From the sequence record MZ234023.1: a stretch of 39,899 nt of DNA, one strand, 5' to 3'. Source of the stretch: Escherichia phage vB_EcoP-101120B2. Shown in pieces: positions 3,001 through 35,973 of the stretch. Made by a program: the position numbers and the translations under genes. The number at the start of each line of letters is the position of its first letter. The first letter of the stretch is position 1. The notes below the pieces were generated by a model, which did no database searches, was not told where the DNA came from, and worked only from the letters and a program-made list of their open reading frames with translations.

Positions 3001-3303
3001 CTACCTCGTTCTCCTACAGAGAAGCCTGAGCGTGCCATCGCGTATGGTGCAGCTACAAGTGACCCTGTGATGAATGTTGTTGGTAACTTCTTGGAGCAGG
3101 TTCCAGCTTTCGGATATGCTGCTAACGTTGGCGCTTCGGCTTACAACTTGGCTGGCTACCTCAAGGCTGATACTCGTGTCAACGAGCGTGACTACATGAC
3201 CGGGATGTATAATACGTTCCGTGAACTGGTTCCGAACGACCCCATTACCCAGAAGCTGCTGCTTGGAACGTTTGAGGAGCAAGGCATCCACATCAAGGAC
3301 TAA
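1..3303 (+). CDS. Internal virion protein D (gp16-like), C-terminal ~1100 aa; 5' partial at window edge
   Basis: Long uninterrupted ORF. Translation aligns from recalled T7 gp16 residue ~230 onward (e.g. TRWNNHKWSREELDQIRN, VITGGSPQNLTELINLA, GVIGAGVDPLTYVP motifs). Position directly upstream of the tail fibre gene as in T7. Confidence 0.85.
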   Translation: MQEQEDRSTWFGFGAATEAEVKNSMVGVAIRAGQTEDSLDVIGDVFNPTRWNNHKWSREELDQIRNAGVLPQYYGVITGGSPQNLTELINLALENQKLDQEKAKAGTGAQLAAGVIGAGVDPLTYVPIAGQVGKGGKLVNKMFTVAAQSGALAGASEIARTSVAGGDAHVAEAILGGALFGGGMTAIADGLGRALGRNTNEFAGPATRLEARETARNVDGQDLSRLPIQEGEQTFSHQGVKFADVPNEPGSVRLEDGSILIGENPLNPKTRQVFDEVIEPERAAAGVNLGGLTEIGLKLLRSENPEIRGVAADLVRSPTGMQSGASGKIGTTASDVFERLRSVDHRFYNDIDDAVTEALKDPYFQTAFWRDSGAFRQDIYQRVSMAIEDGSGNLKAELTPGELKVYDLLKNQFDAKREMMENPAMFGRPDAQSIFPGSRFKGTYVPHVYSKQMKELYIKELGSPEALQEAIKKSWLTSYASRPEVKKRVDEALLEADPTLTPEGLAAAVDKYANDKAYGISHTEQFERSSVMEENINGLVGLENNSFLEARNLFDSDMSIVLPNGQTFSVNNLREWDMDKIVPAYNRRVNGDIAIMAGTGKTTKEMKDLVETMMNKAGDDGKLKGEVSTLRDTLKILTGRARRDGADDAAFATVMRTMTDLSFFAKNAYMGVQNLTEIGGMLARGNVRALLHGVPMFRDLAFRNKKVGASEIKDLHNVIFGKELDDSIRPSKQDVIDRLRSYSDLSRGTATALGTAKYYTGELAVRSPFTKVLNGTTNYLLDAGRQGFLSDIVEHSLTGSKRKFDDRWLKTAGISGEQWSGIKSLIRESVTRGPDGKYTIKDKKAFSQDPRAMDLWRMGDTIADETLLRPHKLSNMDAKAYGPLAKTVLQFKNFVIKSINGRTMRTFYNATKNNRAIDAALSTVMSMGLAGIYYMAQAHVKAYAMQDGRDRDYLKQALDPTMIGYAALSRSSHLGGPLGVANILGGIAGYEDTKMLRSSILPRSPTEKPERAIAYGAATSDPVMNVVGNFLEQVPAFGYAANVGASAYNLAGYLKADTRVNERDYMTGMYNTFRELVPNDPITQKLLLGTFEEQGIHIKD

Positions 3304-10686: not shown

Positions 10687-10794
10687 TCAACACGAAACAA
10701 CGGTGACGACCAACACTGAAACGGTCTACCTGAAGTCCTCTGACTGAAGGGAATGCTCTTTAACAATCTGGATAAACTCTTAATGTGCGCCGAC

Positions 10795-10854
10795 AGTGAT
10801 TAACTACAGGGTCTTTGAGTCTACATCTGAAGGCCCTGACTGATAGTCACTAAC
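10795..10854 (+). repeat. Early-region repeated element copy 1 (AGTGATTAACTACAGG ... CCTGACTGATAGTCACTAAC)
   Basis: About 60-bp element with imperfect terminal inverted repeats. Shares its central segment with copy 4 (11998-12057). Immediately precedes an early ORF. Confidence 0.7.
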
Positions 10855-11117: not shown

Positions 11118-11226
11118 AGTGATTAACTACAGGTCGTTAGACTGATAGCGGCCTGACTGATAGTCACTAACAAGTGATTAACTACAGGTCGTTAGACTGA
11201 TAGCGGCCTGACTGATAGTCACTAAC
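11118..11226 (+). repeat. Early-region repeated element copies 2 and 3, perfect tandem duplication of a 54-bp unit
   Basis: 11118-11171 and 11173-11226 are identical, separated by one base. Same termini as copies 1 and 4 but a different central segment. Confidence 0.8.
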
Positions 11227-11254
11227 ACATAATTAACTTTGAGAGGATATAACT

Positions 11255-11928: not shown

Positions 11929-11997
11929 CTTATAGCAGCGAACAAGCGTTCTACGACGGGTGCTACGAGATGATGAAGCGCGATACTTGCTAGCGAC

Positions 11998-12057
11998 AGT
12001 GATTAACTACAGGGTCTTTGAGTCTACATCTGAAGGCCCTGACTGATAGCCACTAAC
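11998..12057 (+). repeat. Early-region repeated element copy 4
   Basis: Near-identical to copy 1 (one substitution, TAGTCACT to TAGCCACT). Precedes the ORF at 12074. Confidence 0.7.
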
Positions 12058-27330: not shown

Positions 27331-27352
27331 TAAACTATCACTATAGGGACTT
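27331..27352 (+). promoter_or_regulatory. Phage RNAP promoter (phi6.5 equivalent)
   Basis: TAAACTATCACTATAGGGACTT. Confidence 0.7.
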
Positions 27353-31130: not shown

Positions 31131-31153
31131 CTAAACTATCACTATAGGGAGAC
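31131..31153 (+). promoter_or_regulatory. Phage RNAP promoter (phi10 equivalent)
   Basis: CTAAACTATCACTATAGGGAGACC, followed by GGGAGACCAAGAGACAGACTCAAGGTTTCCC, analogous to the T7 phi10 leader hairpin. Confidence 0.75.
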
Positions 31154-31254
31154 CAAGAGACAGACTCAAGGTTTCCCTATTACTTCAGTCCATACGGATT
31201 GGGCGTACAGTAAGTAATAAACTTTATCTTTCAATTGAATAGGAGAATTATCAT

Positions 31255-32304
31255 ATGGCAAACGTTCCGGGTCAGAAAGTTGGTACAGACCAAGGTAAAG
31301 GCAAATCTGGTTCCGACGCTCTGGCGTTGTTCCTGAAGGTCTTTGCTGGTGAAGTCCTGACCGCATTCACTCGCCGCTCTGTAACTGCTGACAAGCATAT
31401 TGTCCGTACCATTCAGAACGGTAAGTCTGCTCAGTTCCCGGTCATGGGACGCACCTCTGGGGTGTATCTGGCTCCGGGTGAGCGACTGTCCGATAAGCGT
31501 AAAGGTATCAAACATACCGAGAAAGTGATTACCATTGATGGTCTGCTGACTGCCGATGTGATGATTTTCGACATTGAAGACGCGATGAACCACTATGACG
31601 TGGCTGGCGAGTACTCCAACCAGTTGGGCGAAGCTCTGGCTATCGCTGCCGATGGTGCGGTACTGGCTGAGATGGCTATTCTGTGTAACCTACCGGCTAC
31701 ATCTGATGAAAACATCGCTGGTCTTGGCAAAGCGTCTGTGCTGGAAGTTGGTACTAAAGCAGACCTGAACACTCCGGCTAAGCTGGGTGAAGCAATCATC
31801 GGTCAACTGACCATTGCTCGTGCGAAGCTGACATCCAACTACGTTCCTGCTGGCGACCGTTACTTCTACACCACGCCGGACAACTACTCTGCAATCCTCG
31901 CGGCTCTGATGCCGAACGCTGCTAACTATGCTGCGCTGATTGACCCAGAGACTGGTAACATCCGTAACGTAATGGGCTTCGTGGTTGTTGAAGTTCCACA
32001 CTTGACTCAGGGTGGTGCTGGGGAAACTCGTGGTGCCGATGGTATCACTATTGCGACTGGTCAGAAGCACGCCTTCCCAGCTACTGCTACTGGTGATGTT
32101 AAAGTTGCTCTGGACAACGTTGTGGGCCTGTTCTCTCACCGTTCTGCTGTAGGTACTGTTAAGCTGCGTGACTTGGCGCTGGAACGTGACCGTGACGTCG
32201 ATGCTCAGGGCGACCTGATTGTTGGTAAGTACGCTATGGGTCACGGTGGTCTGCGTCCAGAAGCAGCAGGCGCACTGGTTTTCACAGCGGCGTCAGCGGG
32301 TTAA
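31255..32304 (+). CDS. Major capsid protein (gp10A)
   Basis: 349 aa. ALFLKVF, HTEKVITIDGLLTADVMIFDIEDAMNHYDV, AILAALMPNAANYAALIDPE and KYAMGHGGLRPEAAGA match T7 gp10A. Confidence 0.95.
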   Translation: MANVPGQKVGTDQGKGKSGSDALALFLKVFAGEVLTAFTRRSVTADKHIVRTIQNGKSAQFPVMGRTSGVYLAPGERLSDKRKGIKHTEKVITIDGLLTADVMIFDIEDAMNHYDVAGEYSNQLGEALAIAADGAVLAEMAILCNLPATSDENIAGLGKASVLEVGTKADLNTPAKLGEAIIGQLTIARAKLTSNYVPAGDRYFYTTPDNYSAILAALMPNAANYAALIDPETGNIRNVMGFVVVEVPHLTQGGAGETRGADGITIATGQKHAFPATATGDVKVALDNVVGLFSHRSAVGTVKLRDLALERDRDVDAQGDLIVGKYAMGHGGLRPEAAGALVFTAASAG

Positions 32305-32567
32305 CGACCTTTAAGGCCCTCTCTACAGAGGGTCCTACCTTAGAGACGTATAGTTCTACGGTGGGAACCAGCCTGAAGGTTGACTTCCCTGAGCTTTCAG
32401 ATGTGACCGATTGGTCGCTGCTTGAGGTGACTACGCCTGATGGTGTTAGCTACTCCCGTAGAACCAACAGTCTCTACTTCAAGGCCACCTCTGGCGTGGA
32501 AGGTCTGGTGATTGTTGGGTATGACGGTACGCCTGTGCGTTCCTTCAACGTATCTTTCACAAACTAA
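31255..32567 (+). CDS. Minor capsid protein (gp10B-like), predicted product of -1 programmed frameshift near 32277-32283
   Basis: G GTT TTC heptamer in the same codon context (ALVF) as the recalled T7 10A/10B shift site. The -1 frame is open from there to the stop at 32567 (~95-aa extension). Confidence 0.5.
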
Positions 32568-32573
32568 TTGAAA

Positions 32574-32610
32574 CCCCTTGGGTGCCTTCGGGTGCTTGAG
32601 GGGTTTTTTT
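32574..32610 (+). terminator. Tphi-like intrinsic terminator after the capsid gene
   Basis: CCCCUUGGGUGCC / GGUGCUUGAGGGG 13-bp stem (with G-U pairs), UUCG tetraloop, followed by TTTTTTT. Very similar to T7 Tphi. Confidence 0.8.
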
Positions 32611-32625
32611 GCTTAAGGAGGGACT

Positions 32626-32715
32626 ATGTTCCTTATTTACACAGGGTTAGCACTATTCGTCTTATTCTGGGCGTACCTGCTGCCCAGCTCACCGTCTAGC
32701 CCCTATGACCGCTAA
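32626..32715 (+). CDS. Hypothetical 29-aa hydrophobic peptide
   Basis: AAGGAGGG RBS 5 nt upstream of ATG. Product MFLIYTGLALFVLFWAYLLPSS... is membrane-like. Confidence 0.3.
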   Translation: MFLIYTGLALFVLFWAYLLPSSPSSPYDR

Positions 32716-32726
32716 GGAGTAAACCT

Positions 32727-33293
32727 ATGTCTCAATACATTCCACTTAATGCTAACGATGACTTAGATGCCATCAACGATATGTTAGCTGCTATTGGTGA
32801 ACCAGCAGTCCTACAGCTTGACGAAGGTAACGCTGACGTCTCGAACGCTCAACGTATCCTGCATCGTGTTAATCGTCAGGTCCAAGCTAAAGGCTGGAAC
32901 TTTAACATCAACGAAGCTGCTGTCCTGACGCCTGATGTCCAAGACAACAGGATTCGATTCCTGCCGTCTTACCTTCGGGTCATGACTGCTGGGACCACCA
33001 GCTACTACAGCAACATGGGTGGATACCTATACGACCTGTCCACTCAGTCAACCACTTTCACCGACCCTATAACGGTAGAGCTTGTTGAGATGAAACCGTT
33101 CTCGGAGATGCCTGTGGTATTCAGGGACTACATCGTTACCAAGGCCAGCCGTGAGTTCAACGCTAAGTTCTTCGGTAGCCCAGAGTCTGAACTGTACCTT
33201 CGTGAGCAGGAATCAGAACTCTATCAGCAGGTCATGGAATACGAGATGGACACTGGTCGCTACAACATGATGTCCGACATCGGGAGGGACTAA
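32727..33293 (+). CDS. Tail tubular protein A (gp11)
   Basis: 188 aa. ILHRVNRQVQAKGWNFNINE, YLYDLSTQS, FRDYIVTKASREFNAKFFGSPE and MEYEMD match T7 gp11. Confidence 0.9.
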   Translation: MSQYIPLNANDDLDAINDMLAAIGEPAVLQLDEGNADVSNAQRILHRVNRQVQAKGWNFNINEAAVLTPDVQDNRIRFLPSYLRVMTAGTTSYYSNMGGYLYDLSTQSTTFTDPITVELVEMKPFSEMPVVFRDYIVTKASREFNAKFFGSPESELYLREQESELYQQVMEYEMDTGRYNMMSDIGRD

Positions 33294-33520
33294 TGGCTAG
33301 TCACAACCTGAAGATTCACCGCCAGCACTTTGGTCCGGTACAACTAGGTCTAAAGACAGCAGAGCTGAGACTTAACGACCGGGACTTTAAGGTTGGCGAC
33401 TGGCTTATCCTGAATGAGTGGGACAACGGGTATACTGGACAACAGGTAGCACGTAAGGTTGTCCACATTGCTGACGTTGGTGACATCGCTGAGGGATACG
33501 TCCTAATGAGTATGATTTAA
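33293..33520 (+). CDS. Hypothetical protein, DUF3850/ASCH-like
   Basis: 75-aa ORF with GGGAGGG RBS and ATG overlapping the gp11 stop. Pattern LKIHRQHFGPVQLGLKTAELRLNDRDFKVGDWLILNEW...YTG resembles DUF3850-type small domains. T7 has nothing between genes 11 and 12. Confidence 0.55.
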   Translation: MASHNLKIHRQHFGPVQLGLKTAELRLNDRDFKVGDWLILNEWDNGYTGQQVARKVVHIADVGDIAEGYVLMSMI

Positions 33521-33529
33521 GGAGGGCCT

Positions 33530-35887
33530 ATGCCACTAATTACTCAATCAATCAAGAACCTTAAAGGTGGCATTAGCCAGCAGCCAGACATCCTGAGGTT
33601 CTCGGACCAAGGCGAAGAACAGGTAAACTGCTGGTCATCAGAGAGTGATGGCCTACAGAAGCGTCCACCTACAGTCTTCAAGAGACGTCTTAACATCGAC
33701 GTTGGGAGCAACCCTAAGTTCCACCTGATTAACCGTGACGAGCATGAGCAGTATTACATCGTGTTCAACGGGTCAAACATTCAGGTAGTTGACTTGAGTG
33801 GTAATCAATACTCAGTTTCCGGTGCGGTAGATTACGTTAAGTCGTCCAACCCGCGAGATGACATCCGTGTCGTTACTGTTGCAGACTATACGTTCGTCGT
33901 TAACCGTAAGGTTGTCGTTAAAGGTGGAAGCGATAAGTCACACTCTGGTTATAATCGTAAAGCACGCGCTTTAATTAACCTGCGCGGTGGACAGTATGGT
34001 CGCACCCTTAAGGTAGGAATCAACGGTGGAGTTAAGGTCTCGCATAAGCTGCCAGCAGGTAATGATGCCGAGAATGACCCACCTAAGGTGGACGCTCAAG
34101 CCATTGGTGCAGCTCTGAGAGACCTTCTTGTTGCTGCCTATCCTACCTTCACGTTCGACCTTGGGTCTGGCTTCCTGCTAATCACAGCTCCTTCAGGGAC
34201 CGACATTAACTCAGTGGAGACTGAGGATGGATACGCTAACCAGCTAATCAGCCCAGTCCTCGACACGGTGCAAACAATCTCTAAGTTGCCTCTTGCGGCT
34301 CCAAATGGGTACATCATTAAGATTCAAGGTGAGACCAACAGTAGCGCCGATGAATATTACGTGATGTACGACTCCAACACTAAGACGTGGAAGGAGACAG
34401 TAGAGCCGGGAGTGGTCACTGGGTTCGATAACACCACAATGCCACATGCTCTGGTGAGACAATCTGACGGCTCCTTTGAGTTCAAGACTCTGGACTGGTC
34501 CAAGCGTGGTGCTGGTAATGATGACACAAACCCTATGCCTAGCTTCGTGGATGCCACGATTAACGATGTGTTCTTCTACAGGAACAGGCTGGGGTTCTTG
34601 TCAGGTGAGAACGTAATCATGAGCCGTTCAGCCAGCTACTTTGCGTTCTTCCCTAAGAGTGTGGCGACACTGAGTGATGATGACCCTATTGATGTAGCTG
34701 TAAGTCACCCTAGAATCTCAATACTTAAGTATGCCGTTCCGTTTAGCGAGCAGCTACTACTTTGGTCTGATGAGGTTCAGTTTGTGATGACAAGCTCTGG
34801 GGTCCTTACCTCGAAGTCTATCCAGCTTGATGTAGGCTCAGAGTTTGCCTTAGGTGACAATGCCAGACCGTTCGCTGTAGGACGCTCAGTCTTCTTCTCA
34901 GCTCCTCGTGGGTCATTCACCAGCATTAAGAGATACTTCGCTGTAGCTGATGTGTCTGATGTGAAGGATGCCGATGATACAACTGGTCACGTACTGTCCT
35001 ACATCCCTAACGGGGTGTTTGATATTCAAGGTACAGGGACTGAGAACTACATCTGCGTCAACTCTACAGGTGCATACAACCGTATCTACATCTACAAGTT
35101 CTTGTTTAAGGATGGCGTACAGCTTCAAGCCTCTTGGTCACACTGGGAGTTCCCTAAAGCTGATAAGATTCTGGCATCTGCTTCCATTGGCTCTACCATG
35201 TTCATTGTTCGTCAGCACCAAGGCGGCGTGGACCTTGAGCACCTTAAGTTCATCAAGGAGGCAACTGACTTTCCGTCAGAGCCGTATAGACTCCACGTTG
35301 ACTCCAAGGTGTCTATGGTCATCCCAATTGGCTCGTTTAATGCTGACACATATAAGACTACGGTTGACATTGGTGCTGCTTATGGTGGTAATGCCCCTTC
35401 TCCCGGTCGGTACTATCTGATTGACAGTCAGGGTGCTTATTTGGACCTTGGGGACTTGACCAGTATCTCTACTGTGATTACCCTCAACGGCGATTGGTCA
35501 GGACGTACAGTGTTCATCGGGAGGCCCTATCTGATGTCCTACAAGTTCTCACGGTTCCTGATTAAGATTGAAGATGATAGTGGCACCCAGTCTGAAGACA
35601 CTGGTCGTCTACAGCTTCGTCGGGCTTGGGTCAACTACAAGGACACTGGCGCTCTGAGACTCATTGTCAGAAACGGTGAGCGAGAGTTCGTTAACACCTT
35701 TAATGGGTACACCCTTGGTCAGCAGACCATAGGGACTACTAACATTGGTGACGGGCAGTATCGCTTCGCTATGAATGGTAACGCATTGACCACGAGTCTA
35801 ACCTTAGAGTCCGACTATCCTACCCCAGTGTCAATCGTTGGGTGTGGCTGGGAGGCGTCATACGCTAAGAAAGCTCGTTCCGTTTAA
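33530..35887 (+). CDS. Tail tubular protein B (gp12)
   Basis: 785 aa. MPLITQSIKNLKGGISQQPDILRF, DEHEQYYIVFNGS, VTVADYTFVVNRKVV, FFYRNRLGFLSGENVIMSR and LQLRRAWVNYKDTG match T7 gp12. Confidence 0.95.
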   Translation: MPLITQSIKNLKGGISQQPDILRFSDQGEEQVNCWSSESDGLQKRPPTVFKRRLNIDVGSNPKFHLINRDEHEQYYIVFNGSNIQVVDLSGNQYSVSGAVDYVKSSNPRDDIRVVTVADYTFVVNRKVVVKGGSDKSHSGYNRKARALINLRGGQYGRTLKVGINGGVKVSHKLPAGNDAENDPPKVDAQAIGAALRDLLVAAYPTFTFDLGSGFLLITAPSGTDINSVETEDGYANQLISPVLDTVQTISKLPLAAPNGYIIKIQGETNSSADEYYVMYDSNTKTWKETVEPGVVTGFDNTTMPHALVRQSDGSFEFKTLDWSKRGAGNDDTNPMPSFVDATINDVFFYRNRLGFLSGENVIMSRSASYFAFFPKSVATLSDDDPIDVAVSHPRISILKYAVPFSEQLLLWSDEVQFVMTSSGVLTSKSIQLDVGSEFALGDNARPFAVGRSVFFSAPRGSFTSIKRYFAVADVSDVKDADDTTGHVLSYIPNGVFDIQGTGTENYICVNSTGAYNRIYIYKFLFKDGVQLQASWSHWEFPKADKILASASIGSTMFIVRQHQGGVDLEHLKFIKEATDFPSEPYRLHVDSKVSMVIPIGSFNADTYKTTVDIGAAYGGNAPSPGRYYLIDSQGAYLDLGDLTSISTVITLNGDWSGRTVFIGRPYLMSYKFSRFLIKIEDDSGTQSEDTGRLQLRRAWVNYKDTGALRLIVRNGEREFVNTFNGYTLGQQTIGTTNIGDGQYRFAMNGNALTTSLTLESDYPTPVSIVGCGWEASYAKKARSV

Positions 35888-35914
35888 CTTATTGAAGGGC
35901 CTATAGATTTACCT

Positions 35915-35937
35915 TAACTATCACTATAGGGACTATA
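35915..35937 (+). promoter_or_regulatory. Phage RNAP promoter (phi13 equivalent), flanked by a 10-bp perfect inverted repeat
   Basis: TTAACTATCACTATAGGGACT; GGGCCTATAG (35897-35906) and CTATAGGCCC (35933-35942) bracket it. Confidence 0.7.
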
Positions 35938-35973
35938 GGCCCTTTAAGTTATAATACTTTAATAGGAGACTTT

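Follow-up and report, generated by a model that had tools for sequence, protein, structure and literature searches.

A Minimal ASCH-Fold (DUF3850) Gene Between Tail Tubular Genes 11 and 12 of Kayfunavirus Phages: Junction History and Candidate Function

A 75-aa gene of the DUF3850 family, a minimal ASCH fold, lies between the genes for tail tubular proteins A and B of Escherichia phage vB_EcoP-101120B2 (MZ234023.1). On balance, we regard it as probably an accessory ASCH gene, which was inserted in an ancestral Kayfunavirus and the product of which is non-structural, binds nucleic acid, a base or a nucleotide, and brings a conditional benefit. In a 3.6-kb comparison, the window (the whole stretch of DNA analysed here, 39,899 nt) matches Escherichia phage vB_EcoP-PM129 and its siblings at 100% identity and many members of Kayfunavirus (Autographiviridae, Studiervirinae) at 94–97%. 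The gene itself is already known, being annotated in an identical genome and in about 150 relatives, and as a genome feature it is ordinary. New here are the formation of its Shine–Dalgarno (SD) sequence by synonymous recoding, its putative repeat-mediated loss in K1F, the degenerate alleles, the low diversity of the cassette, and the insertion hot spot at the gene 11–12 junction.

Position, expression signals and transcription unit

A preliminary description of this DNA had reported a 75-aa ORF with a strong RBS placed between the two tail tubular genes. Both observations hold, since a GGGAGGG SD sequence precedes the ATG by 4–5 nt and the flanking products match PF17212 (gp11) and PF25675 (gp12). 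The features of the region are as follows.

31131..31162, + strand: phage RNA-polymerase promoter copy 5' of gene 10, CTAAACTATCACTATAGGGAGA (repeat family D1)
32570..32607, + strand: T-phi-like intrinsic terminator 5' of gene 11, a 17-bp stem followed by a T run
32727..33293, + strand: gene 11 (tail tubular protein A/gatekeeper; Tube/gp11), PF17212, E = 2.8e-46, phrog_446; read from the sequence
33282..33288, + strand: SD sequence GGGAGGG of the DUF3850 gene, 4–5 nt 5' of its ATG; likewise read from the sequence
33283..33295, + strand: left copy of an imperfect direct repeat, GGAGGGACTAATG, covering the RBS and start context; from the junction alignments
33293..33520, + strand: 75-aa DUF3850/minimal ASCH-fold gene, product MASHNLKIHRQHFGPVQLGLKTAELRLNDRDFKVGDWLILNEWDNGYTGQQVARKVVHIADVGDIAEGYVLMSMI, equivalent to gene 11.05 of Citrobacter phage CR44b
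33521..33532, + strand: right copy of the direct repeat, GGAGGGCCT-ATG, making up the RBS and start of gene 12 (repeat family D13)
33530..35887, + strand: gene 12 (tail tubular protein B/nozzle, gp12), PF25675, E = 0, 1098 bits, phrog_457

The SD sequence is composed of gene 11 codons, namely Gly186 (GGG), Arg187 (AGG) and the first base of Asp188, and the ATG of the DUF3850 gene (33293–33295) overlaps the gene 11 stop codon TAA (33291–33293) within a TAATG. At the other end, the stop codon TAA (33518–33520) overlaps the gene 12 RBS AAGGAGGG (33519–33526), and the gene 12 ATG follows at 33530. The DUF3850 gene has the same GC content and GC3 as the adjoining genes and is thus compositionally assimilated.

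Copies of the phage promoter, CTAAACTATCACTATAGG, are located 5' of genes 9 and 10 (30151 and 31131) and then 3' of gene 12 (35913–35944), while the repeat search of the window revealed none from the T-phi-like terminator to the 3' end of gene 12. Since the terminator lies upstream and no promoter lies inside, genes 11, DUF3850 and 12 form one read-through unit; the gene 11–12 unit of T7 has the same read-through organisation. The likely source of the late transcript reaching the DUF3850 gene is the promoter upstream of gene 10. The gene would be wired into the late tail transcript without a promoter of its own. The lack of its own promoter, the SD sequence inside gene 11 and both overlaps suggest, therefore, that its product is synthesised late and in amounts tied to those of the tail proteins.

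The promoter-like family CT(A/T)AACTATCACTATAGG, which serves to define transcription units, has + strand copies at 3300, 9525, 13042, 16371, 18230, 19203, 21577, 27322, 30151, 31131 and 35913, with one more weak copy at 27351. Two small ORFs occur close to the unit. The first (32626–32715, +; 29 aa, MFLIYTGLALFVLFWAYLLPSSPSSPYDR) is hydrophobic with one membrane-helix-like stretch and may encode a small membrane protein; its strong RBS, TTAAGGAGGGACTATG, has a context identical to that of the gene 12 start. The ORF occupies the narrow interval from the T-phi-like terminator to gene 11, its stop codon abutting the gene 11 RBS. The other (32361–32567, +; 68 aa; phrog_7473, E = 4.3e-35) is read in frame -1 with respect to gene 10 (31255–32304), the major capsid gene. 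This frame is open back through the gene 10 stop codon, and the ORF, annotated in some relatives as “minor capsid protein”, has the look of a frameshift extension of the T7 10B type and not of a gene in its own right. Several relatives match the 3.6-kb region as two pieces with 97% coverage. Elsewhere in the window, a 64-nt repeat pair (10791–10854 and 11994–12057) is 98% identical over a distance of 1.2 kb, a perfect 55-nt tandem duplication occupies 11118–11227, and further short repeat families are present in the same region near 10.2–10.5 kb (D4, D5, D7, D10 and D15 in all).

Family, fold and conserved residues

Residues 4–73 of the protein align to positions 2–76 of the 77-position Pfam profile DUF3850 (PF12961) with 70.1 bits at a cut-off of 22.9 (E = 1.9e-19). 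The ASCH profile (PF04266; PUA-like clan) gives 26.2 bits against a gathering threshold of 21.2 (E = 1.4e-5), and PHROG 986 (“RNA-binding protein”) is matched with E = 2.8e-35. The sole solved relative found by sequence is 3IUW (E = 1.2e-10 with the single sequence, E = 1.8e-19 with a profile of 25 homologues), a structural-genomics entry assigned to Pfam DUF3850 and representing the 83-aa “activating signal cointegrator” NP_814290.1 of Enterococcus faecalis V583. It shares only 33–38% identity with the window protein and is encoded on a Gram-positive chromosome, not in a T7-like tail operon. The predicted fold (model elements E3-9, H10-17, E23-26, E37-43, E47-61 and E69-74) agrees with that of this solved family member. 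The name DUF3850/ASCH given in the preliminary description is therefore correct on the profile and 3IUW sequence matches, with which the predicted fold is in agreement.

The octapeptide G19-L-K-T-A-E-L-R26 presents the ASCH motif G19-x-K21-x-x-E24-x-R26, which was reportedly defined by Iyer et al. in 2006. The motif loop (residues 21–30) is the lowest-confidence part of the model, with a mean pLDDT of 61. A “conservative octapeptide” has been described for ASCH proteins (PMC9599836).

Exhaustive profile searching of family representatives (50% identity clusters) revealed 16,136 cluster representatives of DUF3850 at E ≤ 0.001 and 5,370 at E ≤ 1e-10; it was needed for the whole family, as a word-limited protein search returned only 31 close relatives. 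Conservation was assessed on 152 domains from the 149 best representatives, which share ≤50% identity. All residues conserved at 91–100% in this set are found in the window protein: H4, K7, G19, K21, E24, R26, N28-D29-R30, G35-D36, E42, T48-G49, Y69 and S73. Ten of them (H4, K7, K21, E24, R26, N28, D29, R30, D36 and E42) are conserved at ≥97%, and T48, Y69 and S73 at 91–93%.

The PADLOC search gave a best match of 14 bits (E = 0.0073), which is not significant, and the NCBIfam search with the DUF3850 protein gave zero matches. The full-text literature on DUF3850 or PF12961 yielded domain censuses only and no functional study; a functional study was not found in the literature on the Kayfunavirus “RNA-binding protein” either, and that on K1F “gene 11.5” held nothing relevant. 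In all, the family comprises more than 16,000 representatives and shows a dozen or so almost invariant polar residues.

Distribution, insertion and loss at the gene 11–12 junction

In the phage collection, 489 records encode a DUF3850 homologue, and about 154 of them carry a copy at ≥80% amino-acid identity, these being Kayfunavirus phages of Escherichia, Salmonella, Klebsiella, Enterobacter and others. As about 223 records possess the gp11–gp12 region, the gene represents the majority state in Kayfunavirus. The same gene at the same junction and with the same TAATG, its protein mostly 95–100% identical, is found in CR44b (gene 11.05), EcoDS1, LM33_P1, PE3-1, Vec13, FFK3 and about 150 others; existing labels are “RNA-binding protein”, “DUF3850 domain-containing protein”, “unknown product” (EcoDS1) and gene 11.05 (CR44b).

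For the family as a whole, a chimeric query (gp11 C-terminus plus gp12 N-terminus) gave 1,402 Autographiviridae records, from which 60 were sampled across the ranking. In this sample, the spacer between genes 11 and 12 measures from 2 to about 50 nt, except in the DUF3850 carriers and in two Klebsiella phages, KP3-1 and phi1_066008, which have an endonuclease VII gene at the junction and no DUF3850. The earlier remark that an accessory gene at this place is unusual for the group is thus valid at the level of the family but not of the genus, the majority of which carries it. That the gene was inserted, as also proposed earlier, agrees with the short spacer which alone separates genes 11 and 12 in distant relatives and in T7/T3-type phages.

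Twenty-seven genomes were compared at the junction, namely the window together with LM33_P1, K1F and 24 IMG/VR loci, and fell into three states.

State A, ancestral empty: GGT CGA GAC TAA TAGGAGGTGAT ATG; 10 loci, including the most divergent
State B, carrier: GGG AGG GAC TAATG[gene]TAAGGAGGGCCT ATG; 15 loci
State C, K1F type: GGG AGG GAC TA ATG[gene 12]; 2 loci

The codons GGG AG(G/A) are present in 15/15 carriers and in 2/2 K1F-type empty sites, and GGT CGA or AGC CGA, which encode the same amino acids, in 10/10 ancestral-type empty sites; distant relatives have GGT CGA GAC TAA and then a separate SD spacer. Since every carrier possesses the former codons and state A never does, the Gly-Arg codons near the 3' terminus of gene 11 were synonymously recoded into an SD sequence. 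This illustrates clearly, on a small scale, how a gene, once inserted, gains its translation signals via synonymous recoding of the upstream gene.

K1F, the type species, lacks the DUF3850 gene and differs from the carriers by a clean 237-bp indel running exactly from ATG to ATG. Because it keeps the recoded GGGAGG/TAATG junction, its state is best read as a secondary deletion; the alternative that K1F preserves the ancestral pre-insertion state was rejected, as it has the carrier-specific GGG AGG GAC TAATG. From the alignment, the loss is best read as a precise 237-bp deletion, which would have occurred between the repeats GGAGGGnCT(A)ATG. Deletions between short direct repeats are well known in T7. 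The exact K1F-type junction was found in 26 phage records, corresponding to about 21 phages. K1F and ZG49 have the left flank in common and differ in their right gene 12 haplotypes, both of which are carrier-like; a single deletion with subsequent recombination could account for this, as could several independent ones. As to whether the ORF is absent or disrupted in near-identical genomes, which the preliminary description had considered, together with a lack of DUF3850/ASCH similarity, as evidence against it, the K1F-type absence is a clean deletion and the frame is not disrupted.

Among more diverged alleles at the same site, identity falls to 67% in Kosakonia phage Kc166A, to 64% in Pectobacterium phage LET1 and to 45% in Citrobacter phage CR44b. 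LET1 and CR44b differ from the other copies in the loss of N28-D29-R30, which is replaced by S-I-P in CR44b (L024, 4567–4788; also E24D; Pfam score 26.6 bits) and by Y-D-E in LET1 (L034, 3501–3716), with the frame open in both. These alleles could be decaying, or their specificity could have changed. The assembly of Enterobacter phage vB_Ecl_MII_004 (L033), being frameshift-ridden, was left aside.

The interval between the DUF3850 gene and gene 12 also receives genes. In Hafnia phage vB_HpaA_yong1 (L035, 3820–4260), it harbours a 146-aa endonuclease VII gene (PF02945, E = 2.6e-20), which overlaps the gene 12 start and uses the ancestral gene 12 RBS “GGAGGTGAT ATG”. Published ORF tables place in the same interval an additional ORF37 (146-aa “endonuclease”) of Hafnia phage Ca and an additional ORF41 (158-aa hypothetical protein) of Enterobacter phage B1. 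The gene 11–12 junction is a small insertion hot spot.

Among 14 different 225-nt alleles from carrier genomes, the pooled pN/pS is 0.16–0.17, third codon positions account for 39 of the 62 variable sites, and each of the 15 carrier genomes examined has an open reading frame here. Together with the DUF3850 score, this means that the ORF is not a chance one. Its pN/pS is five times that of gene 11.

In 13 carrier genomes collinear over 3,161 nt (gene 11, insert and gene 12), the DUF3850 gene has a nucleotide diversity of 0.028, as against 0.063 for gene 11 and 0.067 for gene 12. The cassette is the least diverse 225-nt stretch: none of the 2,474 other stretches of genes 11–12 is as low (minimum 0.037, median 0.067). 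At third positions, the DUF3850 gene has a diversity of 0.059 versus 0.16–0.17 in the flanks. This low diversity fits a recent recombinational spread of one allele in a diverged population, the alternative being a silent-site constraint. RNA structure was rejected as the cause of the low silent-site diversity, because the folding signal of 33270–33545 is too weak (z = -1.92; 8 of 200 shuffles fold equally well).

Candidate function and competing explanations

We suggest that an ancestral Kayfunavirus received the DUF3850 gene as an insertion at its gene 11–12 junction and that the product of this gene would be a cytoplasmic small beta-barrel, most likely outside the virion and tail assembly. 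Its conserved ASCH cleft would accommodate either a strand of nucleic acid or just one base or nucleotide, which might be modified, and the residues lining the cleft would be the G19-x-K21-x-x-E24-x-R26 octapeptide together with H4, K7, N28-D29-R30, D36, E42, Y69 and S73. The benefit is presumably conditional and host-dependent, to judge by the fold, the invariant residues and the genomic company of the homologues. The gene is dispensable. The K1F lineage has lost it cleanly, and the alleles of CR44b and LET1 lack the NDR motif. Such recurrent losses and degenerate forms indicate a benefit that is at best conditional. ASCH and other PUA-like domains are described as binding RNA, ssDNA or flipped modified bases, and some of them are enzymes.

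DUF3850 occurs mostly in phages and prophages, and elsewhere its homologues have other neighbours than tail genes. One adjoins a primase in Bas80; another directly follows gene A, the P2 replication gene, with a DNA methyltransferase gene close by and a gene for a ParB N-terminal domain in the vicinity; a Listeria phage homologue lies amid helicase-loader, SSB and resolvase genes. Among 105 longer homologues, fusions join the domain to DUF551 (11 cases), to HTH domains, to DUF7415 or to a dATP/dGTP pyrophosphohydrolase, and a census found ParB-CTPase-DUF3850 fusions to be enriched in phages (bioRxiv 10.1101/2025.10.10.680097). For a replication- or RNA-associated factor, however, a place in the late operon would be odd.

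The position and the translational coupling could instead suggest a tail-assembly factor or a minor virion protein acting with gp11 and gp12. We find this very improbable, as the gene is missing from K1F and some 20 further phages, the gp11 and gp12 of which are about 98% identical to those of the window; it is thus dispensable for virions. T7, T3 and other genera also lack it, so it is not universally present as virion proteins of the T7 group are, and both the replication or early modules in which its homologues reside and the fusion partners listed above point away from the tail. The virion proteomics in the literature does not bear on the question: for Enterobacter phage B1, band-based MS identified six proteins only and missed even gp11 and gp12, and Citrobacter phage SH3 is a phage without the DUF3850 gene.

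A different objection is that the gene is an effectively neutral passenger, kept by the translation need of gene 12 or by recombinational re-spreading. Several observations agree with it: the cleanly deleted junction of some 26 records (about 21 phages), the open frames of CR44b and LET1 despite the lost invariant NDR, the pN/pS exceeding that of gene 11, the unusually low silent-site diversity, which is consistent with the recent spread of one allele, and the readiness of the junction to take an endonuclease VII gene. We nevertheless doubt it strongly, because a pN/pS of 0.17 still means purifying selection, the main clade retains all family-invariant residues with the frame intact in all 15 carriers, and gene 11 maintains a dedicated SD sequence containing an AGG Arg codon, which is rare in E. 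coli. Moreover, K1F shows a phage with the precise deletion to be viable, which means that nothing locks the gene in.

The product might also be an enzyme instead of a passive binder, i.e., a compact hydrolase of a modified base, nucleoside or RNA. Enzymes are known in the ASCH family, namely amidohydrolases of the YqfB type, which act on N4-acetylcytidine, a ribonuclease for ssRNA (ZmASCH) and a DNA glycosylase for 5hmC (BapA), and the many invariant polar residues leave room for some catalytic role different from that of YqfB. The YqfB-type route itself is unlikely. Its catalytic residues are Lys21, Thr24, Arg26 and Glu74 (PMC9599836), of which K21 and R26 are present here and the other two absent: the nucleophile Thr24 is Glu24 in the window protein and in 98% of the family, and the chain stops at residue 75, without the helical region which bears Glu74 in the 103-aa E. 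coli YqfB (PDB 9KYF). BLASTP against an approximate YqfB sequence gave no alignment, so the relation between the two is one of fold alone. An enzymatic function in general is, in our estimation, unlikely.

A broader proposal would make DUF3850 a very widespread base-pocket protein, minimal and stand-alone, of phage counter-defence or nucleotide handling, the Kayfunavirus copy of which recently swept through the E. coli and Salmonella members. We hold it to be distinctly unlikely. Were it true, the pocket would sequester or hydrolyse a nucleotide, a signal derived from one, or a modified base, and the recombinational sweep would explain why silent-site diversity is 2.5–3 times below that of the flanks.

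Returning to the accessory binding protein that we favour, these near-isogenic phages offer a convenient natural experiment in a genetically tractable T7-like background, with the gene present (PM129, LM33_P1), precisely deleted (K1F, ZG49) or degenerate (CR44b, LET1).

Other ASCH/PUA-like readers, such as ZmASCH (5GUQ), PH0355 (2Z0T), PF0470 (1XNE), EVE (2EVE, THYN1), YTH and the McrB N-terminal domain, are larger and usually fused to or partnered with effectors. Unlike them, the DUF3850 protein is a stand-alone minimal barrel, encoded by a lytic phage the DNA of which is not known to be modified. As regards its genomic setting, it resembles phage “morons” and accessory inserts, including the endonuclease VII genes of KP3-1, phi1_066008 and yong1, in being a small non-core gene of variable presence at a tight late-operon junction. 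It differs from morons in having no promoter, terminator or nuclease of its own, its expression signals being recoded into the upstream gene.
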